Below are positions 15,383 through 35,895 of a stretch of 64,000 bases of DNA, piece by piece (the first letter of the stretch is position 1; each line of letters begins with the position of its first letter). The stretch spans positions 1-64,000 of the IMG/VR virus record IMGVR_UViG_3300020183_000001. One strand, written 5' to 3'. Position numbers and translations under genes: made by a program. The stretch comes from a virus. The notes beneath the pieces were generated by a model. That model saw nothing but the letters and a program-made list of their open reading frames with translations. It made no database searches and was not told the DNA's origin.

Positions 15383-15409
15383 AGGTAGTTTAACGTCATA
15401 CCCAGGACG
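15383..15409 (-). repeat. family 1 pseudoknot element, copy 1
   Basis: CGTC-CTGGGTAT-GACG-TTAAAC-TACCT. Confidence 0.85.
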
Positions 15410-15414
15410 GTTAA

Positions 15415-15687
15415 TCACTCTTTGATGTTGCTTTCAAACGAATACTGACGCCGTTTAATTGCATCAGGGTTTTTTTCTTTTTGGATGACACGTGCATCCT
15501 CTGATGCAGCATACAAAACTTCCTGGAACGAATCCCAAACAAACTTAGGATCTTTTAAATAACCAGTAAATTCAAAAGCATCAAGCGTAATAACGTGTTG
15601 TCTAAGTAGTTGACAAAGCAAATCAGCTTTACTCTGGACAAGGTGTTTGAAATCTTCTTCAGGAAGATCGTAGGTATCAAGGTTCAT
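15415..15687 (-). CDS. hypothetical protein
   Basis: Operonic ORF. Confidence 0.55.
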   Translation of the reverse strand: MNLDTYDLPEEDFKHLVQSKADLLCQLLRQHVITLDAFEFTGYLKDPKFVWDSFQEVLYAASEDARVIQKEKNPDAIKRRQYSFESNIKE

Positions 15688-15934
15688 TGTCAAAAGATTC
15701 CTCAGGAAGGTGTTGTTCAATAGCCGCAGTTAAGGCATCAGTAATAAACTGTTTTTGTTTTTCTTCTCCAAGGTCTGTCCACCATTGGAGATCAGCATCT
15801 GCCTCATCCCATTCAATGTGAATGGTACCAGAACCATCTTCTTCTTCAATGAATGTGCATTGAAGTTTAAAGACGGTGTCAGGATTCATACCTGAGACAC
15901 AGAGTTCTGCTCTGTAGTCTTGTTTGTTTTCCAT
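15677..15934 (-). CDS. hypothetical acidic protein
   Basis: EEEDGSGTIHIEWD motif. Confidence 0.6.
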   Translation of the reverse strand: MENKQDYRAELCVSGMNPDTVFKLQCTFIEEEDGSGTIHIEWDEADADLQWWTDLGEEKQKQFITDALTAAIEQHLPEESFDNEP

Positions 15935-16872
15935 GCATTTGCTAGCTGAGGTAATGCAAGTCCTGGGAAAGGAACAAAGCCGTTATCTAACATGTTATCA
16001 AAAAGATTCCATGCATCGTGTTGTGTGAATACCTCCTTTGGTTTGTAGGTTTTCCATGCAGGCAGTGGGGCCATTGACCCATGTTTGGTATACAGAACCA
16101 AGAAACGACCCTTATCTAATTTACCTTCTGGTGGCGCGTACCACCAAGCAGTAGCATCTTGAGCTGTTGCACCACGACCTGCACTACGTACTTCACCACG
16201 CTTAACGAGGAGTTGTCTGTAGCGTTTGATCCAGGTCAGATGAATACACCAAGGTTTGTAATCACTAATCTCAGCCTGGAACTCAGACAGATTATTTAGT
16301 TGTCGCTGGAAAGATCCGCAAGAGCAGTACGGTGCTTTCTCATATTCTTTGTTGCTACTAACCTCAGCAGTCTCACCATCTTCACCTGCATCAAAATAAG
16401 ATTCCTCAACAACATGGAAGCCGTCAGGGGCAACCAGATGTCCAAGGTCAAGCTGATCACTTTGTAATAGTGTCTCAAGCTTAATCCGATCTTGTATGTG
16501 AATGAACTTATCCGCCCACGAACGTTGAGCTTGCGCTGCAGGCGAGAGGTGCCCAAGTGCGTGGCTGTAGTGCCAACCTTTGAAGAGTACGTATGCATTG
16601 TGACGCCAAATGGATGGACCACGGAAGTTAGGACCTAGGTAAGAGAAAAAATCTTTTAGTCGAAATGTAAACTGCTGGTACGCAGCCTTAATCATTTCCC
16701 TGTCATAAGTTTGCTCAGTACCATCGTTACGCACCACGATAGCAGAATTATCTCGCAAATAAATTGCGGAGATTTCCGTGTCATCAAATTCCGGAAACGC
16801 ACGTCTGATATTGCTACGGGTGTAAATAATTTGTTGAGCTTGGTTGAGTTGAGTAATAAGTTCGGTTGTCAT
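15886..16872 (-). CDS. SWIM-type Zn-finger protein
   Basis: YCSCGSF...KPWCIHL. Confidence 0.7.
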   Translation of the reverse strand: MTTELITQLNQAQQIIYTRSNIRRAFPEFDDTEISAIYLRDNSAIVVRNDGTEQTYDREMIKAAYQQFTFRLKDFFSYLGPNFRGPSIWRHNAYVLFKGWHYSHALGHLSPAAQAQRSWADKFIHIQDRIKLETLLQSDQLDLGHLVAPDGFHVVEESYFDAGEDGETAEVSSNKEYEKAPYCSCGSFQRQLNNLSEFQAEISDYKPWCIHLTWIKRYRQLLVKRGEVRSAGRGATAQDATAWWYAPPEGKLDKGRFLVLYTKHGSMAPLPAWKTYKPKEVFTQHDAWNLFDNMLDNGFVPFPGLALPQLANAWKTNKTTEQNSVSQV

Positions 16873-16907
16873 GGTCGAGTTGAGTTTGTGTTGATTTCCT
16901 GACATGC

Positions 16908-17078
16908 TCAGGATTTGGATTTAAACTTTTCAGCCTGGTACACACTGGTAGTAATTTTGTATGTACCCCAGACTGCTGTGGCAAGGGCGACGGGCGTGCC
17001 AATCATAGCAGCTAATCCACCAGTAATCAGACCAGTTGCAATCCCTGTAACAAATGCAACTTTTTCTTCGTGTTTCAT
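16908..17078 (-). CDS. small membrane protein (56 aa)
   Basis: MKHEEKVAFVTGIATGLITGGLAAMIG... Confidence 0.55.
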   Translation of the reverse strand: MKHEEKVAFVTGIATGLITGGLAAMIGTPVALATAVWGTYKITTSVYQAEKFKSKS

Positions 17079-17121
17079 TTAATTAATGTGAGTAGAATTA
17101 ATTATCTTCAAATAGAAACTT

Positions 17122-17376
17122 ATGGAAGAAGTTTACATTCCCCTACATAAGTTTGATATAGAACCATCGATTGATGATTTGTTTTGGGAAGAGAAAATTA
17201 AACGGTCAATTCAAGAGTGTAACTCCGTAAGTACATTGAAAGAAATGGCTACCCTCTTGGCGAGGATAGCCACACAACGCCAAGGAATAATTAAAGGGTT
17301 GGTCAAAGACATTAACATTTTTAACAACGTGTTGATTGATGCTAATGAAATTGCCAACCCTGAAATCAAACCTTAA
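17122..17376 (+). CDS. hypothetical protein (lone + strand gene in the early arm)
   Basis: TAGAAT just upstream; helical ORF. Confidence 0.65.
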   Translation: MEEVYIPLHKFDIEPSIDDLFWEEKIKRSIQECNSVSTLKEMATLLARIATQRQGIIKGLVKDINIFNNVLIDANEIANPEIKP

Positions 17377-18470
17377 AACGAATAGTTTTCACCAGTGTCA
17401 GGATCTTGTGCAGATGCAAGAGCTTTTACTTCTACATCCACAGCCCTGGACACTGGAAGAATCTCTACTCCCTGCTTGATTCCGTAAGCACCACCAAGTT
17501 TTTCAGCATCTTGTTTTGCATGCTGGTTGATGTAGTCATCAAACATCTCTTGGTACTTCCAAGTTGATTCACGATCTTCATCGGGAATACTGAGGCGATG
17601 CAGTGAACTCATTGCTTCATCTTGAGTGTTGTATTCTGGAATCTCAAAGGATTCAATTGCGCAAATCTCAACGTTGTTGGCACCGCGCATCTCATTAGCA
17701 AGCACTGGTACAAACACTGTGGTTGCATAAAACTTTTCGTTGAATGCAAGCGGCACTTCAGAGTCCAGTGCTTTACTCAAACACTTGGACATCTCACGTT
17801 CGTACATCTTGATCTTATCGCTCGCATCCGTGCCATTAAGTCCCTTCAAGGTAAGAACCATAGGGATCTTGTGTGCACGTTTGTTATCCTGGGTCAGGAT
17901 ATAAACCAGATACTTGGTACGTACACTGTACTTACGACGGTACATCTCACCCTTGCTGTTAGCAAGATCAGATGCAACCTTGTCTGCATCCCAAAGTTCT
18001 TTGACCTCAGGGTTATCAAACGTACCAATCGTTTGCCTCATCCCTGAAGTTTCTTCCACCATAAGCGGGGAACGCAAAAGGATTTGAATTCGAGGCTCAG
18101 TGAAATTGAGTCCCTCTTCAATTGAAGTGTTGGGAGCCATACCGAAAGTTTGCTTGTAGTTCCAAATGACTGAACCTTTAGCAAACTGATCTTCAGTGGC
18201 GTTCCATCCGCAAGTGTCAAGATCTGTGTTCCGCACAAACCAACCTCGTGTCTTGGACTTGTTAAGAGGCTGGATCGTGACGAGGTTTTGATACCCCGAA
18301 ACAAATTCTTTAGATTGAAAAAGCTTGAACGAGTCAAGGCTCCTGGTAGCAAGCGCAGATGTTTTCTTAGTAGTCATAACTTTGGTCGGAAGTTTTTCGG
18401 TAGTAGTTTCTTTGGTGGGTTCTTCAGCAGGGTCAGGTTTTCTTAGTAGGTCAAGGACTGATTCAGTCAT
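17373..18470 (-). CDS. DUF5895-like protein (cyanobacterial/phage family, possibly recombination-related)
   Basis: IQPLN..RGWFV, EEGL..PRI, KYLVYIL..DNKRAHKIPMVLTLKG; adjacent to SSB. Confidence 0.55.
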   Translation of the reverse strand: MTESVLDLLRKPDPAEEPTKETTTEKLPTKVMTTKKTSALATRSLDSFKLFQSKEFVSGYQNLVTIQPLNKSKTRGWFVRNTDLDTCGWNATEDQFAKGSVIWNYKQTFGMAPNTSIEEGLNFTEPRIQILLRSPLMVEETSGMRQTIGTFDNPEVKELWDADKVASDLANSKGEMYRRKYSVRTKYLVYILTQDNKRAHKIPMVLTLKGLNGTDASDKIKMYEREMSKCLSKALDSEVPLAFNEKFYATTVFVPVLANEMRGANNVEICAIESFEIPEYNTQDEAMSSLHRLSIPDEDRESTWKYQEMFDDYINQHAKQDAEKLGGAYGIKQGVEILPVSRAVDVEVKALASAQDPDTGENYSF

Positions 18471-18490
18471 TGGATTGTTGAGTTGGTGGA

Positions 18491-18518
18491 TGGGAAGTTT
18501 AACGTCGTACCCAGGACG
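18491..18518 (-). repeat. family 1 pseudoknot element, copy 2
   Basis: CGTC-CTGGGTAC-GACG-TTAAAC-TTCCCA. Confidence 0.85.
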
Positions 18519-18522
18519 TATC

Positions 18523-18789
18523 TCACTTTAGACCAAGGTCAAGGTTTGGAGCTGGAAGATTAAACTTCCTTAACAGTTCATTGTTGCGGCGTTCTTCCAT
18601 ATCAAAATATTCTTCTGATACAGAAGACATGTGCTCATAAATTGCTTTGTCGTAATGACCGCATCCACGAAGAAAACAAATGAATGAATCAATAATTTCA
18701 CCAACAAACATTGCGTTAACAGTGTTTGTTATTGTGGTGTTATCATCAACATGTTTGAATTCAAAGTGGTTAAACTGTTTTTCAGTCAT
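18523..18789 (-). CDS. hypothetical protein
   Basis: F..FLRGCG.Y motif common in small phage ORFs. Confidence 0.65.
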   Translation of the reverse strand: MTEKQFNHFEFKHVDDNTTITNTVNAMFVGEIIDSFICFLRGCGHYDKAIYEHMSSVSEEYFDMEERRNNELLRKFNLPAPNLDLGLK

Positions 18790-18791
18790 GA

Positions 18792-19607
18792 TCAGAAAGG
18801 AGGTTCTCCATCGTCATCGGTAACTGAAGCCATTGCGTAACCAGGAAGATCAGGAAGGCTGGTACCAGTCTGCGCACCCCAAGGTTCAGCAAGATCTTCA
18901 GCAACCTTTCCACCCCACAGGCTAGCTACTCCTGAGCCAGAAGCAACGGTTGTTTGCGGTTGAATTGGTTTGGCTTCATTGTTTCCTTTAGGTGCCAAGG
19001 TCATTGACACCAACTGAATCTTGGTAGCAACCTTCTTCTCTTTGGTTTCTTTATCTGTCCAGGCATCTGTTACCAGTCTCCCCTGGATCGTAAGCCCCAC
19101 ACCTTTACGTGTAAAGTTAACAAGAAGTTCAGCATAGTTTAACTTATCTTCTGCAGCGTTAATTGCATAGAAGTTAAACAGATCTGATTGATTACGACCT
19201 GTATTAACACCAAGGGTTTGATTACAGATCATCAACCCATCGGCCGTAGTTTTGAATGCACGTGCATCATCTTGATCGATGTCCTTAACACAGCGTCCGC
19301 TGAGAACAACTGTATTGAGGATTGGGAATGATGCGTCAACTTGCGCAACAATTCCTCCATGTAAGGAATACGTTTTCGTATCGAGATCATATCGAAGCTT
19401 GGCGCCGTGAATGTAGATCTGTGCACCGGCTGGAATACGGGCAAATCGTTCAGCAGCTTTACCATAAACATTTAGTTGAATTGGGGTTGGAGCTTTGTTA
19501 CCTACTGGAGGCAACAACACATTACATACGGTTGCAAAAGAGCTTTCGCTAATTGCTTTTTCTTTAGGAGCTTCGGCAGTTTGTGCACAAAGGAATGAAA
19601 GATTCAT
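18792..19607 (-). CDS. ssb: single-stranded DNA-binding protein with tandem OB folds
   Basis: NTVVLSGR, KGVGLTIQGRLVTDAWTDKET; acidic tail DDDGEPPF; N-terminal second OB-like segment VYGKAAE...IYIHG. Confidence 0.8.
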   Translation of the reverse strand: MNLSFLCAQTAEAPKEKAISESSFATVCNVLLPPVGNKAPTPIQLNVYGKAAERFARIPAGAQIYIHGAKLRYDLDTKTYSLHGGIVAQVDASFPILNTVVLSGRCVKDIDQDDARAFKTTADGLMICNQTLGVNTGRNQSDLFNFYAINAAEDKLNYAELLVNFTRKGVGLTIQGRLVTDAWTDKETKEKKVATKIQLVSMTLAPKGNNEAKPIQPQTTVASGSGVASLWGGKVAEDLAEPWGAQTGTSLPDLPGYAMASVTDDDGEPPF

Positions 19608-19628
19608 GAGATCAAACAGTTGGTGGTA

Positions 19629-19655
19629 AGGCAGTTTAACGTCATACCTGGGACG
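19629..19655 (-). repeat. family 1 pseudoknot element, copy 3
   Basis: CGTC-CCAGGTAT-GACG-TTAAAC-TGCCT. Confidence 0.85.
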
Positions 19656-19661
19656 GAACAA

Positions 19662-19808
19662 TTAAAATTCTTTTTTTATCTCATCTAAATACTCTACATA
19701 CTTTTCAAAAAGAGCACCATCATTTCTTAATGATGAATCAAAATGAGAATGAAAAAAGAAAGTTGCAATTTCATGCAGTTGTTTTGCAGTAGCTTTCCAA
19801 TCAGTCAT
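19662..19808 (-). CDS. hypothetical protein (48 aa)
   Basis: Exactly fills the gap after polA. Confidence 0.5.
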   Translation of the reverse strand: MTDWKATAKQLHEIATFFFHSHFDSSLRNDGALFEKYVEYLDEIKKEF

Positions 19809-19809
19809 G

Positions 19810-21675
19810 TCAGTGCGTATCAAACCAGGTGCAGCCTACTTTAGCATCGCCATCGATAGGACAACGGAAGTTAAAGAATTGTTGAGCCTTTGGAAAAGCA
19901 TCCAGTGCTACAGACTTAAGAATGTCTGTTAATTCGGGTTTGCAAGCTAACTGAACTTCATCATGAATCATCGCAGCTTGTTGCCAATCAACACCATGTA
20001 CATAACCAAGTTCATCCATATCTGTATGAATGTTAATAACAACTTGCTTCATAATTAATGCACCTGCTGATTGCAATAAAACATTTAATGCTTTGAAATC
20101 TGATCTACAATAAAGAATACGTTTATCTAAACCACGTAACCAATTGTTTTCTTGTAGTGTTTTTGCAAGATGCTCTTTAAGTTTACGTAGTGCTGGTACA
20201 CCATCCATGAATGAATTAATTGCAGTACTACCTAGTTTGCGCAGAACTACTTCATTTTTTTCATTCGGATCAATAACAGTTCCTGCTTTAAGTGCACCAG
20301 CTCCATAAGCCACAGCATAAAGTAAACGCTTACTTATGTCTCTGGTAGCCACACCAAAACGTTCTTGATTATAAACGTGAATATCAATTGATTCATCTGT
20401 TACTACACGTGCATACTCGCCATCATCCCAGTAAGCAAGGTAACCAGCAAGGCACCTAAGTTCAAGAGCTTTAGCATCTACACCAATTAAGTTCCAACCA
20501 TCTGGTGCATGAAACAAAGATCTACATTCTTTTCCGTAAGGTGAGTATGCTGCTGGTACCTGAGCCATGTTGGGGTTGCGATGACTGCAGCGACCAGTAA
20601 TACATCCGTTTGTTACAACGTCACCATGAATACATCCTGTTTCATTGTTGACTAACTTAAGCCAAGCATTTTTACCATCAGCAATCTGACCAAGACGTTT
20701 CTCAATCAGCATGTACTCAGCTAATGGTTTGGCTTCTGGGTAAGGCAACTGTTCAAGTACGTCATCATCAAGGACAGGGTTTCCTTTTTCAGTTGATTTA
20801 CTTGATTTCCATCCATACTTCTGCTGGAGCCTACTGACAATTTGTTGCCTGGATCCAGGATTAAATTCTTCCAGTCGAACTTTTTCAAATGGAACCCCCT
20901 TTACATAACCACGTGTTTTGTTATTGACCTTTGGTACAAATACTTCTTTGTGTTCAATGGGTGGAAAGATTTCTTTTAAGTGTGTTTCAAGTTCTGTTTC
21001 TTTTGCTCTGAGACTATCCACCAGATCAAGAGCTGCATCCACATCAAAAGAAAAACCTGTTCGCACTTGTGCTTCAATGCATCCAGCAAAGTCATGTTCA
21101 AGTTTGAGTGCAGGTTCTGGATAGTTTTGTTTTTGGATTTTTTCAAATAGTTTTGTGGTAACTGCCACGTCTTGACGGCAGTAGTCTGCCATTGCTTCGG
21201 AGTATTCTGAAAAATCTTTGAAGTCAATCTTGTAATCAGCCAACCGATAACCCCACGCTTTAAGTGAGGCTGAACCACGGAGGCCCTTTGGAACCTCCGT
21301 ATATTGTTCTTCATCAAGGTCATACAGTTTTTCTTTGGGCCAGATGAGTCGAGTACAAATGAGTGTATCAATAATTCGTGCAGCTCTAAACGTATAGAAC
21401 GGATAAAGTTTACGAATTACAGGTAAGTCGTAGAACAGGATGTTATGGCCAATGAGCACATGAGCCCGAGCCAAATGCTCGAGACCACTAGCAATATCAT
21501 CAGGCCCATAAGTAAAAGTTTGTTTTCGCTGGACATCATACAGTACCAAGCAATGTATCTTCGTGACTTTGTCATAAAGATTATCGGTCTCCAAATCGAA
21601 CACGTAATACTTCTCAACCTCTGAACTTGCCTTCAGCGGAAACTTCAAGTTTTTGACAGGCGAGATCTGAGTCAT
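19810..21675 (-). CDS. T7-like family A DNA polymerase with 3'-5' exonuclease
   Basis: VFDLETD, GHNILFYD, YCRQDV, GVDAKALELR, RDISKRLLYAVAYG (Tyr at the T7 Y526-equivalent position), IHDEV. Confidence 0.95.
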   Translation of the reverse strand: MTQISPVKNLKFPLKASSEVEKYYVFDLETDNLYDKVTKIHCLVLYDVQRKQTFTYGPDDIASGLEHLARAHVLIGHNILFYDLPVIRKLYPFYTFRAARIIDTLICTRLIWPKEKLYDLDEEQYTEVPKGLRGSASLKAWGYRLADYKIDFKDFSEYSEAMADYCRQDVAVTTKLFEKIQKQNYPEPALKLEHDFAGCIEAQVRTGFSFDVDAALDLVDSLRAKETELETHLKEIFPPIEHKEVFVPKVNNKTRGYVKGVPFEKVRLEEFNPGSRQQIVSRLQQKYGWKSSKSTEKGNPVLDDDVLEQLPYPEAKPLAEYMLIEKRLGQIADGKNAWLKLVNNETGCIHGDVVTNGCITGRCSHRNPNMAQVPAAYSPYGKECRSLFHAPDGWNLIGVDAKALELRCLAGYLAYWDDGEYARVVTDESIDIHVYNQERFGVATRDISKRLLYAVAYGAGALKAGTVIDPNEKNEVVLRKLGSTAINSFMDGVPALRKLKEHLAKTLQENNWLRGLDKRILYCRSDFKALNVLLQSAGALIMKQVVINIHTDMDELGYVHGVDWQQAAMIHDEVQLACKPELTDILKSVALDAFPKAQQFFNFRCPIDGDAKVGCTWFDTH

Positions 21676-21847
21676 GTTCAATAATCCATTGCAAGATCTG
21701 TGCTGCACCAACGCGATATGGATGGCAAAAAACTTTGGACAGATCCGAATCAGATTCTACAGGAATCAAGACGAACTTGTTCTTATTTGAATCTGCTCGG
21801 ACGCAATAGTTAACACCATCTTTACATGTAGCAATAACGTAAGACAC
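21614..21847 (-). CDS. hypothetical protein
   Basis: ORF upstream of and overlapping polA. Confidence 0.55.
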   Translation of the reverse strand: MSYVIATCKDGVNYCVRADSNKNKFVLIPVESDSDLSKVFCHPYRVGAAQILQWIIEHDSDLACQKLEVSAEGKFRG

Positions 21848-21924
21848 AAAAAGTTCCAGAAGAAAGAACAGTTAAATGATACTGTCCTTCTTCTGGAATG
21901 CAACTATGTCAGCCAATCAGTATT

Positions 21925-22695: not shown

Positions 22696-22717
22696 GGTTG
22701 TGTTGAGTTGAGTGAAC

Positions 22718-22744
22718 AAGCAGTTTAATGTCGTGCTCAGGACA
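22718..22744 (-). repeat. family 1 pseudoknot element, copy 4
   Basis: TGTC-CTGAGCAC-GACA-TTAAAC-TGCTT. Confidence 0.85.
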
Positions 22745-25569: not shown

Positions 25570-25579
25570 AAAATAAATA

Positions 25580-25597
25580 CCCCCGTTTGCACGGGGG
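25580..25597 (-). terminator. GC-rich hairpin with GCAA tetraloop and U-rich tail
   Basis: CCCCCGT-GCAA-ACGGGGG followed by TATTTATTTT. Confidence 0.5.
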
Positions 25598-25620
25598 CTG
25601 AGTTGTGTTTCGTAAGTAGT

Positions 25621-26007: not shown

Positions 26008-26035
26008 CTGGGACTTACACTGTATAGATGCCCAG
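26008..26035 (-). repeat. family 2 structured element, copy 1
   Basis: CTGGG-CAT-[CTATACAG]-TGTAAGT-CCCAG. Confidence 0.8.
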
Positions 26036-26557: not shown

Positions 26558-26633
26558 TGGTACCTGAGGTGAGATTTGAACTCACGCTGGAACGATTTTA
26601 AGTCGTTTGCCTCTTCCGCTGGGCTACTCAGGC
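26558..26633 (-). tRNA. trnL: tRNA-Leu(UAA), short variable loop, CCA encoded
   Basis: GCCTGAG/CTCAGGT acceptor; AACGA-CTTAAAA-TCGTT; GTGAG-TTCAAAT-CTCAC; ACCA end. Confidence 0.9.
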
Positions 26634-28675: not shown

Positions 28676-28703
28676 TGAGCAGTTTAACGTCATGCTCAGG
28701 ACG
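28676..28703 (-). repeat. family 1 pseudoknot element, copy 5
   Basis: CGTC-CTGAGCAT-GACG-TTAAAC-TGCTCA. Confidence 0.85.
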
Positions 28704-29258: not shown

Positions 29259-29435
29259 TTAGTCAGGTTCTACAAACTGACAAGCAGTTGTGATGTAACA
29301 CTTGTATTTGTTCCAGGCACGTGCTGTGCAGAACTCGCCATGGAACCGTTGTTCATCACTGCAGTATTCACGTGCACGCTTAGCTGCACACTGTGCAAGA
29401 TTGATGCGATCAAACATGCTAATGTAGTTGTCCAT
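29259..29435 (-). CDS. hypothetical protein (58 aa)
   Basis: MDNYISMFDRINLAQ...; starts 32 nt after a family 2 element. Confidence 0.55.
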   Translation of the reverse strand: MDNYISMFDRINLAQCAAKRAREYCSDEQRFHGEFCTARAWNKYKCYITTACQFVEPD

Positions 29436-29466
29436 AGTTAAGTTGTTGTTGGGGTTGAAGTTGATG

Positions 29467-29505
29467 CTGGGACTTACACCACGTACTTATGTAGGTGATG
29501 CCCAG
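29467..29505 (-). repeat. family 2 structured element, copy 2
   Basis: CTGGG-CAT-[hairpin]-TGTAAGT-CCCAG. Confidence 0.8.
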
Positions 29506-29509
29506 TGTT

Positions 29510-29770
29510 TCAGTCTTCTTTATCAAATGATTTCATAATTGATTCAGGCATAGACATTTCAATTGAAGGCAAGTCATAGTCGTCATTTGTATCAACAATA
29601 ATTTTATGTAACGGAAAATATCCATCACTAAGATCAGCGTTGAGTTTCCAAATTTCTACTAATAGTTCTCGAAAAAATCTTTTTCGGTCCTCTATGCCTG
29701 TAAACTCATCAGCACCATAAACTTTTTTAGTGTCAGTAAATTTAAATTCAATAGTAAATGAATCGATCAT
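29510..29770 (-). CDS. hypothetical protein
   Basis: Operonic ORF. Confidence 0.6.
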   Translation of the reverse strand: MIDSFTIEFKFTDTKKVYGADEFTGIEDRKRFFRELLVEIWKLNADLSDGYFPLHKIIVDTNDDYDLPSIEMSMPESIMKSFDKED

Positions 29771-29775
29771 GATCT

Positions 29776-29973
29776 TTAGATTATCTTTATGTTTCGTTTG
29801 CTTAAACCGGTGCCTGGGATTGAGATAGATCCAAGGACACCAGACTGCCGTGCGTTAAGTGTTAGTTGGAATGGACCAAGTTTAATTGATTTGGTGTACG
29901 ATTTGATACCATGTTCAGTTAAGTTAAAGCCAGCGATAGTACGGTCAAAGTTAATAGGTGATTTCTTTGTCAT
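29776..29973 (-). CDS. DUF4236-like small protein
   Basis: KSIKLGPFQLTLN...SISIPGTGLS. Confidence 0.55.
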   Translation of the reverse strand: MTKKSPINFDRTIAGFNLTEHGIKSYTKSIKLGPFQLTLNARQSGVLGSISIPGTGLSKRNIKII

Positions 29974-30190
29974 AACCAAAGTCGTGAATTTGTTTAACAA
30001 GTTTGTGTTCGTCTTGAGTTAATTGTGAATATAAATATTCAACCATATCATCATCAGATGATAATGAATTGATTGCAGCAATTGCACGATGTTTGTCATG
30101 TGTTGTTGTATAAGAATGTGGATGAGAAATAATTTTAGATATGCAATCTAAAATTTTATTGTAACGAGCTTCGTTTACTTCATTTGTCAT
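29951..30190 (-). CDS. hypothetical protein
   Basis: Operonic ORF. Confidence 0.55.
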   Translation of the reverse strand: MTNEVNEARYNKILDCISKIISHPHSYTTTHDKHRAIAAINSLSSDDDMVEYLYSQLTQDEHKLVKQIHDFGYDKEITY

Positions 30191-30513
30191 CACCAGTCTC
30201 CACAAGTAAATGTTTGAGTAACAACAAATGAAAGAGCAAAGGTCTCCTCTTCAATCTCGTCTTCTTCTGCTGGATAGTAACGAGCTTCGAATCCGCCAGT
30301 GCCTACCGATCGATCATTAATAGATCGATACAAAAGATTCCGACATGAACGCTTCATACGTTCAATGGTTGGAACAGTTAAGCTACCGTCTTCCATAACG
30401 TTAGCCCACTTCCAATCAAGTGCAGTCATTGCAATTTGGACTTTCTCAAAGTTAAAACGTTCGAGAAGGTCTTCAATAAGTTGGGATTGATGTTCAGTGA
30501 TTGTGAATGTCAT
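30190..30513 (-). CDS. hypothetical protein
   Basis: FNFEKVQIAMTALDWKW...PTIERMK...TGGF motif. Confidence 0.7.
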   Translation of the reverse strand: MTFTITEHQSQLIEDLLERFNFEKVQIAMTALDWKWANVMEDGSLTVPTIERMKRSCRNLLYRSINDRSVGTGGFEARYYPAEEDEIEEETFALSFVVTQTFTCGDW

Positions 30514-30592
30514 TGCAGTTATTCAAACATTTTGATAAAGAGAATTGTGCCACATATAAAAAATGTGCACAATACTAATGCATCAGGCCAGC

Positions 30593-30874
30593 TCATGGTT
30601 TGTTGTAAATAGTTCCGTTGCGTTTGTAAAGATCAAACCCATGCATAGTCTTTGTGTCAAGTGTAGTGTAAGGACCAATGTTGGCACAGCCAATTAAGTA
30701 GTAGAACTTAAAGAAGCCTGGGTGTTCATCCCACTCTTCATCAGTACACATAAGTTTAGATCCAACACCAAACGTATTCTTACGTTGGGTAGTCCATATG
30801 TCACCTGGCTGAGCAGGCAGGTGACGTGTCTTAGATTGAGTCTTAGGTTGAGTCTTTGGTTTAGTTGTAGTCAC
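30593..30874 (-). CDS. hypothetical protein
   Basis: GTGA coupling to the upstream gene. Confidence 0.55.
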   Translation of the reverse strand: MTTTKPKTQPKTQSKTRHLPAQPGDIWTTQRKNTFGVGSKLMCTDEEWDEHPGFFKFYYLIGCANIGPYTTLDTKTMHGFDLYKRNGTIYNKP

Positions 30875-31089
30875 TGCAGATCTCCTGGCATGAGTGCATT
30901 GGTGTCTTCATCAGACATATTGGACATAACAAATTTGTTTCCATCGGCGTCTACAAAGCCGCCGACAAAACCAATACCATGTCGATCAGCAGATTCTTTC
31001 ATCTTTGCAACGATTGACATAGCTTGCAACCGTTGGTTATCAATGGCATCAGGGATGCGTGGTTTGGGTGCGTCGTTAAGTGCAGTCAT
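30871..31089 (-). CDS. hypothetical protein
   Basis: Follows a family 2 element. Confidence 0.65.
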   Translation of the reverse strand: MTALNDAPKPRIPDAIDNQRLQAMSIVAKMKESADRHGIGFVGGFVDADGNKFVMSNMSDEDTNALMPGDLQ

Positions 31090-31115
31090 GGTGAGTTAAG
31101 TGTGTAGTAGTTGAG

Positions 31116-31160
31116 CAAGCTGGGACTTACACGCCTTCTGTCAGAGCGATGCCCAGCTTG
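31116..31160 (-). repeat. family 2 structured element, copy 3
   Basis: CAAGCTGGG-CAT-[CGC..GCG]-TGTAAGT-CCCAGCTTG. Confidence 0.8.
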
Positions 31161-31269
31161 TGTTTATAAGCTTACCACCCTCTGTCAAGGGTGACCACCC
31201 CGTTCATGAGTGGGAGCGTGCATATTTGGGGTGAAAGCTTATTGAGAATTTAAATAAATGTTTAATTTA

Positions 31270-31641
31270 TTAATTAGCTTTTGTTAATTCAAATGTATTT
31301 AAGTTATTGTTCATTGTTTTAAAACCCCATTTTCTACGGTTAGTATTTTGTTCAGATTTTATTGCCCATTTTAAATTATTTGGATTATTGTTAGATGGAC
31401 AATTATCAATGTGATCAATAGTCATAGATAATTTGTATTCATTAAAAGTTAAAACATACACTATTAAATGTACTGGATATTGTTTACCTTTATATGTAAC
31501 ACGCCAATATCCATGTGAAGTTAAACAACCTGCAACGTTGTTTGCTTTAACACGATTAGTAATTGATATTTTCCATCTTAAAAAAGATGGAGAAGTTTCA
31601 TCTACATAAAACAAATTTTTAAATAAGGTTAAATTGTTCAT
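31270..31641 (-). CDS. HNH homing endonuclease-like protein (AT-rich island)
   Basis: AGCL..GYWRV...VHLIVY...IDHIDNCPSNNNPNNL. Confidence 0.85.
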   Translation of the reverse strand: MNNLTLFKNLFYVDETSPSFLRWKISITNRVKANNVAGCLTSHGYWRVTYKGKQYPVHLIVYVLTFNEYKLSMTIDHIDNCPSNNNPNNLKWAIKSEQNTNRRKWGFKTMNNNLNTFELTKAN

Positions 31642-31646
31642 TGCAG

Positions 31647-31970
31647 TTACCGATGCATTTCTTGGTGTTCTTTCCATGCAGCAGTGTGCATTTCATCCAT
31701 AGTTATCGGTGGTTCACCAACCCATTCATCTGGTTCATCAGGCCATTCGATAGCTTGCTCAAGTTGACCAATGGCTTCTAACAGATATTCTTCGTAATGA
31801 TACGGAAGATCATTGTATCCCAAGGGACGATTCTGTTCCCGTTGGTAGATAGCCATAAGTTCTTCGATGATCAGCGTGATGCGCATGTCATCGTTGAGCT
31901 GGTAGGTATGTGTACTACCATCATGACGGGTGTACGTGTTGCTGGTGAATTGAAGTTGATGTTTAGCCAT
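31647..31970 (-). CDS. hypothetical protein
   Basis: GEPPITMDEMH.AAW motif. Confidence 0.7.
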   Translation of the reverse strand: MAKHQLQFTSNTYTRHDGSTHTYQLNDDMRITLIIEELMAIYQREQNRPLGYNDLPYHYEEYLLEAIGQLEQAIEWPDEPDEWVGEPPITMDEMHTAAWKEHQEMHR

Positions 31971-31998
31971 GGTGTGTTTGTTGATAGTTGATTTGATG

Positions 31999-32037
31999 CT
32001 GGGACTTACATCACGTACTTATGTAGTAAATGCCCAG
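31999..32037 (-). repeat. family 2 structured element, copy 4
   Basis: Near-identical to copy 2. Confidence 0.8.
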
Positions 32038-32103
32038 CTTGTAGTATTAGTACTATTGCCAATACATGGATAGTATTGGCAAGTTTTATGTGCGCTTCAA
32101 TAC

Positions 32104-32385
32104 TTAGATTAAGCCAAGGATTGAGAGCCAACTGTTGGGGTCGTCGGGTTCGACCTCGTCCTCCTCTGGCGTGAAACAGACTGAGTCGAAGACCCACTCT
32201 TCAATTTCTTCGAGCGTGGGGACGGGGTACCACTCACGTTTCCAGAAGATGTGCGGCCAACCGTCTCTGATTTCAACGTCGTGGAAGCAGAGTGTGGTGT
32301 CGGCTGGCTCTTGTCCCTCTTCGTTGGTGAGTGGGGTGTAACCGACGATTGCAGCAATGTCGTGTTGGATGGGTTGGAGGGCCAT
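32104..32385 (-). CDS. hypothetical protein (GC-rich)
   Basis: PTLEEIEEWVFDSVC.TP..DEVEPD...SWLSILGLI. Confidence 0.7.
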   Translation of the reverse strand: MALQPIQHDIAAIVGYTPLTNEEGQEPADTTLCFHDVEIRDGWPHIFWKREWYPVPTLEEIEEWVFDSVCFTPEEDEVEPDDPNSWLSILGLI

Positions 32386-32481
32386 AGTAGTGAGATGAAT
32401 TGAAGGAACAGTGTAGTGAGAATGGTCAGGATAACGATGATGTGTAGTATTACATCATCATTATATTGTTGAGGCTGAGTG

Positions 32482-32619
32482 TTAGTCATCAGTTAGTTCA
32501 TCAGTTGGGTTAGGTGGTTGCATCTCTTCTTGCATAGCTTGTTCCTGCTGGTACGCAAGGTCAGACCATGCGTCAAGAAGATCTGCATTGTAGTTCTCAT
32601 CGAGTTGTTGAGTTGTCAT
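32482..32619 (-). CDS. small acidic protein (45 aa)
   Basis: Starts 20 nt after family 1 copy 6. Confidence 0.55.
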   Translation of the reverse strand: MTTQQLDENYNADLLDAWSDLAYQQEQAMQEEMQPPNPTDELTDD

Positions 32620-32638
32620 CGAATGAGTTGATAAAGGA

Positions 32639-32667
32639 CTGAGCAGTTTAACGTCATACTCAGGACG
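32639..32667 (-). repeat. family 1 pseudoknot element, copy 6
   Basis: CGTC-CTGAGTAT-GACG-TTAAAC-TGCTCAG. Confidence 0.85.
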
Positions 32668-32716
32668 GATATCAAGAATATGAATAAACGACGTTTATCA
32701 GAATTCCAAGTAATAG

Positions 32717-33100
32717 CTAGTCAAATGGTTTAAAATCTGTATCTTTCAAGAGAGAGTCAATGTGTGCAACATCGCATTCTCTCATGTATTCACTTAAGTT
32801 TTCTGATGGATCAATCTCATAGTCATCAGTTTGATTCTCAACAACTTCGCATCCAATGTCTTCGAGTTGATCAACGTAGTTATCCCAGCTATTGGCATTG
32901 CCATAGACATGGGCATAACGCCCGGTCTGGTCAACGACAAGTGCTACATAAGTCATGGGTTGAGCCTCAGGTAGTGTGAAGGGTCTTTGTTCTGCAGCCA
33001 TTAACTTTGCAGTAATGGCACGCAAATCGTGCCTAGATAGTTCTCCATTTGGTCTCCACTTCAACGCGGTATTTGCAAATGTTGTAGTAGGTAAGACCAT
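32717..33100 (-). CDS. hypothetical protein (start uncertain)
   Basis: Operonic ORF. Confidence 0.55.
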   Translation of the reverse strand: MVLPTTTFANTALKWRPNGELSRHDLRAITAKLMAAEQRPFTLPEAQPMTYVALVVDQTGRYAHVYGNANSWDNYVDQLEDIGCEVVENQTDDYEIDPSENLSEYMRECDVAHIDSLLKDTDFKPFD

Positions 33101-33125
33101 TGGAATAACAGATAGGTTAATTAGT

Positions 33126-33344
33126 TTACCGTGGTTCGACCAAGGTTTGTTGGCATGACCACTGTAGTAAAGACTTTGTAAAGTCGGTACCAAGCATAGC
33201 GCCTGTTACGACAAAAGCGATACCGATAACAATGGTTGCAGATAAAAAGTTACAAAGGTAACGTCCTGCTCTACTGCTGTGGTACTCAGGGTACACATCA
33301 GTGTGAATAAATTGTTTAGGTCCAAGTTTAGTAATCTGTTTCAT
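33126..33344 (-). CDS. small membrane protein
   Basis: Single hydrophobic helix. Confidence 0.55.
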   Translation of the reverse strand: MKQITKLGPKQFIHTDVYPEYHSSRAGRYLCNFLSATIVIGIAFVVTGAMLGTDFTKSLLQWSCQQTLVEPR

Positions 33345-33420
33345 TGGAGAAAGTCCTGTGTAGTAGGAATCAACCTTCGGTTGATGGACGGAGTAATACA
33401 ACTGTACTACGTTGCAATAG

Positions 33421-33490
33421 GCAGGAGAGGAAGAAGATCTCCTGCAGAAAACCCACTCATCAATGATGAGCAGGGTTAAGTGCAAGAATC
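33421..33490 (-). repeat. family 3 structured element, copy 1
   Basis: TTGCA-N3-..CCC[hairpin]GGG-TTTTC-TGCAG..CTGC. Confidence 0.7.
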
Positions 33491-33503
33491 AGTTAGTCAA
33501 GAG

Positions 33504-33896
33504 TCAGGCCGCAGCAGTTGCAGCCTTCTTCTTACTAGCAGCCTTCGTTCCTTCCTCAGCTTTGGGCTGAGGCTTGGAACCAAAGGCATAATCAGTCACT
33601 TTCAGTTGAAACTCTGGTTGCTTGAGCGGCATGAGCTCTTCATCTTTCATATAGAAAGCACGGATGCCTTGAATTTTACCAGACACCGTGAGCTCTTGGC
33701 CTACAACCAGATTGTCATTGGTATAAGCAGTAAGCAAACCATTGCTGTTGAAGAATTTGATTGTGACCACAGCATCTTTAGAGATACGGTGGTACAAAGT
33801 AACAACCAAACAGTCACGCTCATCTTCCGTTTTGATAACGATAAGACTTGCAATGCGACCAACAACAGTAAACGTTTGCAGATCAGCGTAAGTCAT
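33504..33896 (-). CDS. second SSB-like single OB-fold protein
   Basis: TFTVVGRI...LVVGQELTVSGKI; basic rather than acidic tail. Confidence 0.55.
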   Translation of the reverse strand: MTYADLQTFTVVGRIASLIVIKTEDERDCLVVTLYHRISKDAVVTIKFFNSNGLLTAYTNDNLVVGQELTVSGKIQGIRAFYMKDEELMPLKQPEFQLKVTDYAFGSKPQPKAEEGTKAASKKKAATAAA

Positions 33897-33926
33897 AAAA
33901 TTAAATTGAGTTGAGTTGATAAGCAA

Positions 33927-33980
33927 GCAGAGATGAACTCTGCAGAAACCCATCGAAATCGATGGGAATATGCAAAGATC
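33927..33980 (-). repeat. family 3 structured element, copy 2
   Basis: CTTTGCA-TAT-TCCCATCG..CGATGGG-TTTC-TGCAGAG..CTCTGC. Confidence 0.75.
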
Positions 33981-34133
33981 ACCAGTCGTAAACACGAATG
34001 GCTTTAAGGTTAACAGGAGAGATATCCAGTAGTTCAGCACCAGCAAGCAATGCTTCTGTTTGTGTGCGAGCCATTAGCTCAATAACAAACTCACTACTAA
34101 ACACTTTCCAAATAACCAAGGGACGTTCCACGA

Positions 34134-34376
34134 TTAGTCCACTAGATGTTCTTGTTCCCATTTAAGAAGTGCACGGTTGAGATCAACCTTCTTCTCAAGG
34201 ACAACACAGAACGGGACCAAGTCTTGGAACTGTACCAAGCCATCTTGCCATTGATAAAAGATCTCCAGTGCAGCCTGGCGCTGACTTTCAATCTCCTGAT
34301 CAATGATAGGAGTGTCTCGACGTGCAAGAAGACGAGCTTCTTGGGTAAGGAGACGTTCAACAGCTTTAGGAGTCAT
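34134..34376 (-). CDS. hypothetical protein
   Basis: Follows a family 3 element. Confidence 0.65.
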   Translation of the reverse strand: MTPKAVERLLTQEARLLARRDTPIIDQEIESQRQAALEIFYQWQDGLVQFQDLVPFCVVLEKKVDLNRALLKWEQEHLVD

Positions 34377-34406
34377 AGCGAAACCAAGTGGAGTTGAGTT
34401 GAGTTG

Positions 34407-34460
34407 TGCAGATGTAAAGTCTGCAGAAACCCATCTTGTTACAGATGGGAATTTGTAGAC
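34407..34460 (-). repeat. family 3 structured element, copy 3
   Basis: GTCTACA-AAT-TCCCATCT..AGATGGG-TTTC-TGCAGAC..TCTGCA. Confidence 0.75.
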
Positions 34461-34461
34461 A

Positions 34462-34728
34462 TCACATCATTTGTTCGATGCGTTCTTGCTCCATTGTGGT
34501 GGAATAGTCGTAATACTCTTGCATCTCCATCAGCATGTCTTTCATGCTGGTAGGAATTGAACCAAGAGTACGTACGTCGCGATCAATCCACTCTTGCCAT
34601 GTGGCACCAGTGTCTAGATCATACATGTTCCACAACTTCTCAAAGTGAAGCTGTGTAGTTTCAACGTTGTACCAAGTAACGCGATACCGTCCTTCGTCAG
34701 GACGGTAGGTAAGTGTTGGGGTAGCCAT
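34462..34728 (-). CDS. hypothetical protein
   Basis: Operonic ORF. Confidence 0.6.
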   Translation of the reverse strand: MATPTLTYRPDEGRYRVTWYNVETTQLHFEKLWNMYDLDTGATWQEWIDRDVRTLGSIPTSMKDMLMEMQEYYDYSTTMEQERIEQMM

Positions 34729-34731
34729 AAG

Positions 34732-34917
34732 TCAATTAGTTTTGTAACCGTTAGAAGCACACCAATTCATATGAATTTGATGCGCAGGCTTAGGCCAGTC
34801 ATGTTGAAGGCATTGTTTAGCAGTTGCTTCGTGCAACAAACGTGCACCAATGCAACTAGCAATACCTCCACCAATAACAACGGTAGCAATGTAAATAACC
34901 AATTGATTCTTAGTCAT
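34732..34917 (-). CDS. small membrane-anchored protein
   Basis: TM helix followed by QCLQHDWP...WCASNGY. Confidence 0.65.
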   Translation of the reverse strand: MTKNQLVIYIATVVIGGGIASCIGARLLHEATAKQCLQHDWPKPAHQIHMNWCASNGYKTN

Positions 34918-35090
34918 GAGTTGATGTGCAGTTGACAATCGTTAGGCATAATAAGTGCAGCCGCACGAATGCGGTATTCACTTATCTTCTGTCCAAGCTG
35001 CTGTTTAGATGGCAGCTTAGCAGTTTCTACTGCAGATGCTGTTAGTTTCAGCAATGCAGCAGTATTCTTTCGAATGTGTAGTGCAGTCAT
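34914..35090 (-). CDS. hypothetical protein (58 aa)
   Basis: ATGA coupling to the next gene. Confidence 0.55.
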   Translation of the reverse strand: MTALHIRKNTAALLKLTASAVETAKLPSKQQLGQKISEYRIRAAALIMPNDCQLHINS

Positions 35091-35129
35091 AAGTTGAATT
35101 GAGTTAAGCCACTCTCAGTGAGTGGCAAT

Positions 35130-35176
35130 AGTTAGGCAGGGGTTTGCACCCTGCCACCCGCTTGTACGGATTAACC
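35130..35176 (-). ncRNA. family 4 mini tRNA-like three-way junction, copy 1
   Basis: GGTTA-A-TCCGT ACAA GCGGG-T-GGCAGGG TGCAAAC CCCTGCC-TAACT. Confidence 0.65.
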
Positions 35177-35416
35177 GTAGTTCTCGGGAAGCTCTACAAG
35201 CTCTGCAAGAACTTGGTGTTGCAGCTCGCGTTCGCCAGCAATCTTCAGTCCCCATGCGGCAATCTGAAGAGCTTGCTCACGGCTTAGTAGCTGCGAGTGG
35301 CCTGACTCCATCCAAAACTGGATGAGATCGTAGGCCGTAGCCGCTAGTTCTTCCCTGGTAGGAAGTACAGCAGCAGTAGTGTTGGTCACGGTATTCTCCG
35401 TGTGTGCGGTACCCAT
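35171..35416 (-). CDS. hypothetical protein
   Basis: Start MGTAH inside a 30-bp repeat. Confidence 0.6.
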   Translation of the reverse strand: MGTAHTENTVTNTTAAVLPTREELAATAYDLIQFWMESGHSQLLSREQALQIAAWGLKIAGERELQHQVLAELVELPENYG

Positions 35417-35431
35417 CTCCGCTGAGGGTAA

Positions 35432-35480
35432 TAACTGGGACAGGGTTTGCACCTGTCCTCCCGCTTTAACGGATCAGTTA
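35432..35480 (-). ncRNA. family 4 mini tRNA-like three-way junction, copy 2
   Basis: TAACTG-A-TCCGT TAAA GCGGG-A-GGACAGG TGCAAAC CCTGTCC-CAGTTA. Confidence 0.65.
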
Positions 35481-35641
35481 AGAGACCTAAACTTAATTAA
35501 AGCCTCACGAATTGCTTCTTGTACCCAGTGCTTTGGTACTGGATACAGCTGCCATTGCTTCCACGTCTCAAAAACAAGACGCCGTTCGACAGCTGAAAGA
35601 TGTTTGTAGCTCACAGGAATCTCCTGTTGTGCGGTACCCAT
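35474..35641 (-). CDS. hypothetical protein (55 aa)
   Basis: Start MGTAQ inside a 30-bp repeat. Confidence 0.55.
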   Translation of the reverse strand: MGTAQQEIPVSYKHLSAVERRLVFETWKQWQLYPVPKHWVQEAIREALIKFRSLN

Positions 35642-35657
35642 TTCCGCTGGGGGTAAT

Positions 35658-35686
35658 GCTACGGTTTAACGTCCATCAGCTAGACG
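35658..35686 (-). repeat. family 1 pseudoknot element, divergent copy 7
   Basis: CGTC-TAGCTGATG-GACG-TTAAAC-CGTAGC. Confidence 0.65.
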
Positions 35687-35767
35687 TGAATCGCTGAGAT
35701 CCCTTGCTACGACTGGGTTCTAAGAACGACAGTCATTCCTGAACCGCTACCTCGCGGGAGGTTCCCC

Positions 35768-35800
35768 ATATCCACATACTTTTCCACAGGGTGTGGAAAA
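35768..35800. promoter_or_regulatory. DnaA-box-like cluster
   Basis: TTTTCCACA (35780-88), inverted TGTGGAAAA (35792-800), ATATCCACA (35768-76). Confidence 0.45.
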
Positions 35801-35835
35801 CGTAGTCAGATGTGTGGGTTCCCTGACATGCGGTG

Positions 35836-35895
35836 TGCAGGTTAGTGAGAGCTGCATAAACCCCTGCCGTAAAGACGACAGGGGAAGAGGCAACT
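35836..35895 (-). repeat. family 3 structured element, copy 4
   Basis: AGTTGC-CTCT-TCCCCTGTCGT..ACGGCAGGGG-TTTA-TGCAGCT..CTGCA. Confidence 0.65.

Follow-up and report, generated by a model that had tools for sequence, protein, structure and literature searches.

Four families of small folded RNA elements between genes of the leftward replication arm of an S-EIVl-related phage: candidate boundary modules of a long transcript

In the early transcript of phage T7, RNase III processes hairpins with an internal loop that lie between the cistrons, and in T4-type phages the promoter-terminator motifs referred to as PeSL cassettes reportedly flank small variable genes. Here we describe short folded RNA elements that occupy the gene junctions of a 64,000-nt stretch of viral DNA (positions 1 to 64,000 of IMG/VR record IMGVR_UViG_3300020183_000001, hereafter the window), which is the start of an 82.6-kb single-contig phage genome. 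The elements fall into four fold families, all read on the minus (coding) strand: a pseudoknot (family A), a bulged hairpin (family B), a two-hairpin element (family C), and a tRNA-like junction (family D). By analogy with the systems described below, we tentatively read them as cis-acting RNA boundary modules that would turn a long leftward replication transcript into separately stable units, a reading that we put first while giving it somewhat less than an even chance.

The sole experimentally characterised relative of any of these folds is coremin (also xrRNA-C, an exoribonuclease-resistant RNA), a 20-mer with the sequence GUCCGAAGACGUUAAACUAC (PMC10520033), which occurs in beny-, cucumo-, and other eukaryotic RNA viruses and is reported to stall the nuclease Xrn1 (PMC6546385, PMC10520033, PMC10321173). 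According to the mutants described, its stem must pair and its loop must read YGAD (4 nt) or YGNNAD (6 nt) (PMC6546385, PMC10520033); the spacer letters A16, A17, C18, U19, and A20 are given as essential (PMC6546385), and a second hairpin after the spacer as needed for Xrn1 stalling (PMC6546385, PMC10520033). [quoted passage not shown] In xrRNA-WCC, a 3-bp pseudoknot helix joins loop and spacer and the first loop is a single letter; this RNA causes frameshifting without the second hairpin and needs that hairpin for Xrn1 resistance (PMC10321173). Coremin is further reported to act on ribosomes, by blocking those that scan and by promoting -1 frameshifting (PMC10520033, PMC10321173). Besides these viral RNAs, the t-elements of plant mitochondria were proposed to mark the ends of mRNAs for RNase P and RNase Z (PMC1920247), and the leader of T4 gene 32 holds a pseudoknot, with 12 candidate RNAs reported ahead of GP32 genes (PMC10690425).

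At the DNA level, the only relative of the window phage among cultured phages is Synechococcus phage S-EIVl, with 74% identity across the DNA polymerase gene and a common gene order. [quoted passage not shown] All 24 listed sequencing runs that match positions 27000-36900 are lake or freshwater DNA metagenomes, with no RNA run among them. By repeat finding, minus-strand reading, and a junction-by-junction listing we recovered six full and one partial copies of A, four copies each of B and C, and two of D, plus two small pseudoknots downstream (referred to as D6) (Table 1). The core motifs of all four families are far more frequent than expected by chance, and the coding strand carries all 16 full copies. 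In the junction listing, each junction of the arm longer than about 40 nt contains a folded element or the tRNA-Leu gene, and the short ones are overlapping, tightly coupled, or furnished with a plain purine-rich ribosome site. The original prediction, which was made from the window alone and placed four structural families here on the minus strand, is recovered; of the seven pseudoknots it counted, six are full copies and the seventh is degenerate, with only stem 1 and the linker kept.

Table 1. Folded elements and associated features in the leftward arm of the window (nt, nucleotides; ORF, open reading frame)
Element	Position	Strand	Remarks
A	15382..15409	-	stop codon 5 nt before; ATG 22 nt after
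A	18491..18518	-	ahead of DUF5895 gene (17373-18470)
A	19628..19655	-	ahead of SSB gene (18792-19607)
A	22717..22744	-	ahead of GP88-family gene; stem 1 UGUC/GACA, a compensatory variant
A	28676..28703	-	ahead of 584-aa PcfJ-like gene
A	32640..32667	-	ahead of 45-aa gene (32482-32619)
Degenerate A-like	35664..35687	-	stem 1 hairpin and linker, without stem 2; E 1.7
B	26008..26035	-	bulged hairpin
B	29467..29505	-	bulged hairpin
B	31120..31156	-	bulged hairpin
B	31999..32037	-	bulged hairpin
C variant	33421..33475	-	hairpin 1, UUUUC, UGCAG, loop, CUGC
C	33927..33966	-	two hairpins; upstream X (UUGCA) could pair with Y (UGCAG) instead of Z
C	34408..34449	-	two-hairpin element
C	35837..35884	-	two-hairpin element heading about 290 nt without a convincing ORF
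D, tRNA-like three-way junction	35130..35176	-	upstream UAA stop in outer stem; plain hairpin and leader after
D, tRNA-like three-way junction	35433..35479	-	upstream UGA stop in outer stem; D6 pseudoknot after
D6 small pseudoknot	35406..35431	-	then hairpin holding GGAG and likely GUG start
D6 small pseudoknot	35631..35656	-	then hairpin holding GGAG and likely GUG start
tRNA-Leu(UAA)	26558..26633	-	occupies the same kind of junction
Terminator-like hairpin	25578..25599	-	GUGCAAAC loop as in D T-arm, then U-rich run

Family A is an H-type pseudoknot of 28 nt, and its core pattern matches the window six times against 0.07 expected (0 of 100 shuffles reached six). A covariance model run with filters off returned six matches at E ≤ 2e-7, all on the minus strand, with the next best at E 0.65; the remainder of the genome (64001-82633) contains no A copy. 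The stop of the preceding gene lies 4-6 nt before four of the six copies, 17 nt before one, and about 53 nt before another, and an ATG follows after 20-27 nt. S-EIVl, which grows on Synechococcus PCCC-A2c, also has six A copies, all on the coding strand, one of which similarly precedes its annotated ssDNA-binding protein gene; B and D are present in S-EIVl too. The degenerate copy occupies a slot that elsewhere holds a tRNA-like element, and a D6 pseudoknot directly follows it.

Selection on the fold of A is evident from comparison across viral contigs, in which the pattern was found at no fewer than 115 loci. Over the 128 A matches listed, stem 2 pairs at six of six positions in 80, at five in 40, and at four in 8, and among the 129 distinct 36-mers of the matches listed, pairing holds in 94.5% of 1290 cells; two-sided changes number 119, compared to 34.8 in shuffles, of which none in 500 reached 119. 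When the partners were slid, only 20-51% of cells paired. Compensatory changes occur in five of the six stem-2 pairs. As the first pattern fixed stem 1, we rescanned the contigs with an anchor on the linker only (TTAAAC), and the A fold then fitted 148 of 760 sites compared to none of 754 reversed controls. Stem 1 in the 89 unique folds is CGUC/GACG (57), UGUC/GACG (15), UGUC/GACA (6), AGUC/GACU (4), or, more rarely, GGAC/GUCC (3), GGUC/GACC (2), and AGAC/GUCU (1). The loop and linker letters are invariant, the first loop letter being C in 88 of the 89 folds, and loop letters are invariant in B and D as well. Two other ideas were dropped: the linker of A makes no slippery heptamer for -1 frameshifting in any of the six copies, and the gaps of 53-60 nt are not in-frame for a stop-codon readthrough fusion.

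These counts also bear on whether the elements are DNA-level sites (promoters, promoter-terminator cassettes, or protein-binding sites) whose RNA folds are incidental, which we consider most improbable. In Staphylococcus phage B166 the annotation gives the A copy as a promoter predicted by BPROM, the repeats mark an indel (see below), and of the 25 terminator-like sites (14.7 ± 3.4 expected) three are element hairpins, at 33474-33452, 33943-33927, and 25598-25579; a U run is absent from A, B, and D. However, the compensatory changes preserve pairs and not sequence, and the G-U pairs common in A (at two pairs of stem 2, UG was counted 43 and GU 30 times) fit the coding strand alone and would be mismatches if read from the other strand. 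The full copies are all on the coding strand, and promoter-like sites are not enriched at 15000-34999 (31 vs. 45.9 ± 6.7 expected), with none on an element. Selection on RNA structure of the coding strand, as originally predicted from stems that change and loops that stay fixed, is therefore seen in the pair counts of A, and likewise in those of B and D given below.

Family B is a hairpin with an outer stem (P1), a CA bulge, a short inner stem (P2), and a GUAAGU internal loop. Its 11-mer core matches the window five times against 0.01 expected; the fifth match (63384-63394, minus strand) is outside the arm, lacks the 5' arm, and by eye lies within coding sequence of the other strand. B occurs at no fewer than 120 viral loci, with 100 unique cores among the matches listed, and leaving P1 free gave 135 matches compared to 4 in the control. 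P1 covaries in the 91 unique matches as CUGGG/CCCAG (66), CUUGG/CCAAG (12), CUAGG/CCUAG (5), and AUGGG/CCCAU (2), and P2 reaches at least 3 bp in 61 of the 100 cores vs. 17% of shuffles. The shortest B is 26 nt long with about 8-10 bp in total. A BLAST search for B in cultured phages returned 8 records, all half-query matches inside coding genes, and no B element.

For family C, the strict core matches the window three times against 0.04 expected, and the fourth copy is a variant. Viral contigs were scanned with a loose pattern, most matches of which lack hairpin 1; the 16 distinct sites that passed the filter run from the stop codon through X, hairpin 1, UUUC, Y, and the loop to Z. Since X and Z are both complementary to Y, with covariation judged by eye only, C is possibly a two-state element. 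One C copy lies in a stretch of about 290 nt (~35610-35897, minus strand) where C, a further hairpin, the degenerate A, and D6 stand in a row, and a 36-aa ORF call begins inside the C copy.

The tRNA-like family D, with two matches in the window against 0.00 expected, consists of a 5-bp outer stem, a single short arm, and a T-like arm of 7 bp with the 7-nt loop UGCAAAC. In a gapless alignment of 33 copies, 98.6% of 561 cells are paired, and two-sided changes in 11 of the 17 pairs amount to 67 cells vs. 15.1 in shuffles. The stop codon of the upstream gene lies inside D in 30 of 34 matches, and its first two letters are part of the outer stem, where they covary with the 3' strand (UGA-CAG, UAA-UAA). 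Relatives have canonical UUCGA-type T-loops and 7+5 bp stems in the D slot, and the detectors called none of these a tRNA either. ARAGORN recognised none of the D sites of 16 loci and of the window as a tRNA, and the Rfam tRNA model had no match on D in the window. The tRNA-Leu(UAA) of the arm overlaps the last codons and the stop (26624-26626) of an upstream 71-aa ORF; as it holds this stop, RNase P processing would take the stop off. Elsewhere in the arm, 29167-29258 (minus strand) may represent a fifth structured family, in which a long outer stem encloses a hairpin rich in G and C and a CCUGCAAACC word resembles the D T-loop. A RAGATH-5 RNA (52.1 bits, cut-off 50) was found at L024:2617-2669 (minus strand; L numbers are our locus handles) on a 150-kb viral contig, about 1 kb from an A copy, and its loop word is similar to the small arm of D.

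Except for tRNA-Leu and an abiF RNA, no Rfam 15 family reached gathering score in the window, and none matched any element up to E 10. Similarly, no family fell on an element at gathering score in 19 viral loci and 16 bacterial ones, or up to E 1 in 5 cultured phages, and RF03003 (GP20-b) was above cut-off in none of four A-bearing records. The families without a match on the elements include pistol, preQ1, GP20-a, GP20-b, and the tRNA mimics of the tLRNA type. A literature search for coremin in bacteriophages returned BNYVV work and none on phages, and one for intergenic covarying phage pseudoknots returned no description of families A-D. The proposed comparison with Rfam thus left the novelty of the elements standing, and on these scans and limited literature searches families A-D appear not to have been described for phages yet, although they may be among the 10,006 candidate viral RNAs of PMC10690425. 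The presence of several unrelated structured families in one phage niche recalls ribozyme classes, as reported in PMC4604425, and, together with the RAGATH-5 RNA near an A copy, would suit self-cleaving ribozymes of new classes that cut the transcript themselves. We regard this as very unlikely, as no ribozyme family appeared on the elements in the above scans of the window, phages, and viral and bacterial loci at their respective thresholds. Moreover, the natural self-cleaving RNAs known to us are all well above 26-28 nt, whereas A is only 28 nt and the shortest B only 26 nt.

The families are also interchangeable between related phages. Among 36 protein clusters (235 elements), 10 contain orthologous downstream genes that are preceded by differing families; for example, the PcfJ-like gene has A ahead of it in 19 phages and B in 3, and before the 45-aa gene (32482-32619) 11 phages have A and 7 have B. 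Compared to L052 and L030, the loci L019 and L067 have one extra small gene and one extra B copy, with the breakpoints inside the conserved 3' half of B. Pairs in which only one neighbour differs have the same element family in 75% of cases, be it the upstream or the downstream gene that differs (background 31%). The suggested modularity is borne out by the differing families ahead of orthologous genes, and a part as recombination joints gains support from the indel breakpoints within two B copies and from elements that persist when either neighbour gene changes; because the modules repeat, they would also act as joints for the gain and loss of gene cassettes.

The same exchange argues against the elements being operators for RNA-binding proteins, for instance a pseudoknot and open leader on which an SSB-type or other phage repressor nucleates, as in T4 gene 32. 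Invariant loop and linker letters in A, B, and D would fit such operators, as would A ahead of the SSB gene in both the window phage and S-EIVl, and the gene 32 pseudoknot with the 12 candidate RNAs ahead of GP32 genes is a reported precedent (PMC10690425). But four unrelated folds replace one another ahead of the same gene, and A is present in staphylococcal, vibrio, actinobacterial, and cyanobacterial phages and in chromosomes of many phyla; no phage protein shared by them was found, though no systematic search was made. We therefore consider operators improbable.

BLAST of one A copy matched 138 cultured-phage records, including 83 of Staphylococcus and 27 of Vibrio phages; other hosts are Synechococcus, Nostoc, Microcystis, Arthrobacter, Mycobacterium, Bacillus, Streptococcus, Lactobacillus, Moorella, and Paracoccus. 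The phage copies that we fetched were upheld by the covariance model, and variant linkers read AUAAAC and UUGUAAAAC. In Staphylococcus phage B166, phage D6E, and a common gut phage, A lies between head-assembly genes and the scaffold gene, and in Nostoc phage NMeng1 (L339:899-1007) and Arthrobacter phage Molivia (L340:899-1012) it lies 2-3 nt 5' of a tRNA gene; the Molivia copy has a longer linker and sits 6 nt past the SSB stop. When A was searched for strictly, no farther than 60 nt from tRNAs called by ARAGORN, the outcome was 0 of 174; such a scan is blind to the three cases seen by eye in L016, NMeng1, and Molivia, in which stem 1, the linker, or the tRNA departs from the usual form. A giant-virus-binned contig carries three tandem A copies (L064:4617-4801, plus strand), with a short hairpin and a U run after each of the first two.

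In bacteria, the A pattern is present in at least 120 genome contigs of Bacillota, Desulfobacterota, Omnitrophota, Actinomycetota, and other phyla. At 93 sites among the 120 listed loci (L343-L462, e.g., L355:6896-6976, minus strand), a tiny ORF of 16-114 codons, mostly 18-30, ends inside or just before A, with the consensus ..R-[YFW]-M-[LI]-[RP]-[PR]-V-A-H-C-x-x-G-C, also written RYMLRPVAHCKEGC. Its stop lies 4 nt before A at 8 of the 93 listed sites and 2, 14, and 20 nt into A at 12, 24, and 47, respectively. We take the tiny ORF to be coding because its third codon positions vary about twice as much as the others (entropy 1.59 vs. 0.71 and 0.76 at first and second positions); no NCBIfam or Pfam family fits the peptide, the sole match having E 0.15. 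The gene after bacterial A encodes an Rrf2 regulator in 29 of 63 cases and otherwise redox, metal, or stress proteins, and the tiny ORF together with A may form a leader-peptide switch.

A compact pseudoknot of the H type whose junction is invariant, tandem copies in L064, and a place upstream of Rrf2 regulators and redox or metal genes in bacteria would also be expected of a small ligand-sensing riboswitch aptamer. For family A as a whole this is hardly probable, as the phages have six or more copies each, ahead of unrelated genes, A is interchangeable with B, and the cyanophage copies have no expression platform that overlaps a ribosome site or terminator.

The spacing of the elements relative to translation signals is tight. 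Over 139 distinct contexts, A begins 5, 6, or 7 nt past the ORF stop in 35, 12, and 7 cases (54 in total), almost never closer than 5 nt, and ends 19-22 nt ahead of an ATG-led ORF in 56. B ends 29-31 nt ahead of an ATG in 45 of 251 loosely defined matches, and its flanks include a further conserved 3' tail of about 8 nt, with which the free leader becomes similar to that of A. Leaders past A and B contain 10% G vs. 22% in coding sequence, and a Shine-Dalgarno core is found in 10 of 99 A leaders and 12 of 91 B leaders; it is found at 72 of 559 other ORF starts of the same phages.

Such spacing suggests that the folds might be translation devices, which organise initiation of the following gene or deal with the ribosome finishing the preceding one, possibly as a place where the 30S subunit stands by or docks, as a barrier to scanning after termination, or through coupling, in which the terminating ribosome unfolds the element. 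Besides the tight gaps and the G-poor leaders, mostly without a Shine-Dalgarno core, this would fit the covarying hairpin after D6 that holds GGAG and the start codon, the word X of C that lies 2-4 nt past the stop and competes with Z for Y, the coding tiny ORF of bacteria, and the stop codons inside B, D, and bacterial A copies. It would also agree with the reported action of coremin on ribosomes (PMC10520033, PMC10321173). However, A also stands where nothing is translated, ahead of tRNA genes and of non-coding units capped by a hairpin, its distance to the start in Firmicute phages is 30-88 nt with other hairpins between, and the other ORF starts are equally poor in Shine-Dalgarno cores. 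We rank a translation-linked role second and, taken as the main function, think it rather unlikely; it is compatible with cutting and shielding of the transcript, and the two are not mutually exclusive.

In the boundary-module reading, which we prefer, each module would be a compact fold between the stop of one gene and the G-poor leader of the next. The D elements and the real tRNA would be cut signals for RNase P and RNase Z, whereas A, D6, and B would be mechanically stable roadblocks to nucleases of 5'-to-3' decay or scanning (RNase J, RNase E), placed just upstream of the next ribosome site, so that each cistron would become a separately stable unit. C may contribute a ribosome-sensitive two-state version, and the repeated modules would serve as cassette joints as well. 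We rank this reading first because A precedes genes, tRNAs, and hairpin-capped non-coding units alike, because it fits coremin, because it explains how unrelated stable folds can replace each other, and because it gives D and the tRNA a role. In particular, A ahead of tRNAs and capped non-coding units fits end-shielding better than a role in translation only. The nuclease roadblock itself is suggested by the core that A shares with coremin and by the resemblance of D to the top half of a tRNA. Of the interpretation originally offered, selection on structure, modularity, and recombination joints are thus upheld, and cutting and 5' protection are argued by analogy.

Several points weigh against the preferred reading. 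Its support for cutting or protection comes from analogy only, and A departs from coremin in two tested requirements, the loop rule and the second hairpin. Xrn1 differs from RNase J, and resistance to the one may not carry over to the other. Plain GC-rich hairpins could shield ends; as these would suffice, the invariant loops suggest a specific partner. In B and D the fold has to be opened at its base by a terminating ribosome, and the stop of the bacterial tiny ORF lies inside A, both of which point towards a link to translation. Lastly, the family of an element follows its upstream and its downstream gene equally well (75% in both cases), which favours neither side as the one served.

A bolder form of the same idea, which we offer as doubtful though possible, is that phages and bacteria use protein-free exoribonuclease-resistant RNAs. 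By analogy, A would be a prokaryotic version of coremin that blocks RNase J or RNase E, and cyanophages of the S-EIVl group would use it alongside tRNA mimics and two further folds as a punctuation code of the cut-and-cap kind that sets the stability of each cistron. If true, one fold would be common to eukaryotic RNA viruses, DNA phages, and bacterial chromosomes, and the differing expression levels of many genes from one long transcript would be explained. Two circumstances are relevant to such expression: the leaders nearly all lack a Shine-Dalgarno core, and, to our knowledge, the cyanobacterial hosts have no Rho factor. A and B are short, very widespread RNA families missing from Rfam 15, and A may be the first xrRNA-type nuclease-resistant RNA in prokaryotes. 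At 28 nt it would be small enough for a portable mRNA stabiliser or insulator, and since A is found in well-studied Staphylococcus phages ahead of scaffold and capsid genes, experimental systems exist. The repeats further offer a mechanism of gene-cassette exchange in a poorly known cyanophage lineage.

Other features of the window were noted in passing. A repeated purine-rich ribosome-site word of the ACAGUAGAGGAAAGGA type replaces the folded module at 23627-23651, 23947-23971, and 24467-24491 (minus-strand reading). Between two B copies lies an AT-rich 135-aa ORF (31270-31677, minus strand), in the part of the arm with the lowest GC (0.38 in 30001-32000), which could be an inserted mobile gene. 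Outside the arm, the abiF RNA (RF03085, 53.1 bits) at 10159-10271 (plus strand) is directly followed by a tRNA-like gene that ARAGORN reports as tRNA-??? with a two-letter anticodon.

Compared with the known systems, B resembles the RNase III signals of T7 in general shape, as an internal-loop hairpin between cistrons, but its shortest copy has only about 8-10 bp in total, its internal loop is invariant, and the arm uses four fold types instead of one. Like PeSL cassettes, the elements are short repeated intergenic motifs beside small variable genes and mark indels; unlike in PeSL, promoter-like sites are neither enriched nor on the elements, and the conserved features are RNA pairs. The order of pseudoknot, open leader, and SSB gene is that of T4 gene 32, whereas A also precedes many unrelated genes and tRNAs, and B can substitute for it. 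In Firmicute phages A lies upstream of a scaffold (GP20-type) gene, as do GP20-a and GP20-b (RF02991, RF03003), but no Rfam family matched A in the viral loci or cultured phages.

With coremin, A has in common the GUC/GAC stem and the GUUAAACU spacer, a loop that begins with a pyrimidine, and the letter A before the last loop letter. Its stem pairs as CGUC/GACG in most unique folds and as compensatory variants in the remainder, in agreement with the coremin stem rule. In contrast, the loop is 8 nt long, its second letter is mostly U and not G, and its last letter is C in 15 of 89 folds. A keeps UUAAACU (fixed by the search pattern), with position 20 mostly G and A in few copies, and instead of a second hairpin the spacer runs into the 3' strand of stem 2 and then into the G-poor open leader. 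The hosts are bacteria, which have no Xrn1, and A is known here from sequence only; A shares the coremin core but, by the tested rules, is not a coremin member. Like xrRNA-WCC it has Watson-Crick pairing between loop and spacer, which in A shows two-sided changes in five of six pairs, but stem 2 has 6 bp, extends 3' from U19, and is shifted in register by one letter, compared to 3 bp within the spacer in WCC. D resembles tRNA in its acceptor-like stem stacked on a T-arm with a T-loop, and with tRNA-Leu it shares tRNA-shaped folds at the ends of coding units with t-elements, which are found at the 5' or 3' ends of mRNAs. Although D has only an outer stem, a short arm, and a T-like arm, encloses the upstream stop, and belongs to a phage operon, the t-elements of plant mitochondria are its nearest described parallel.

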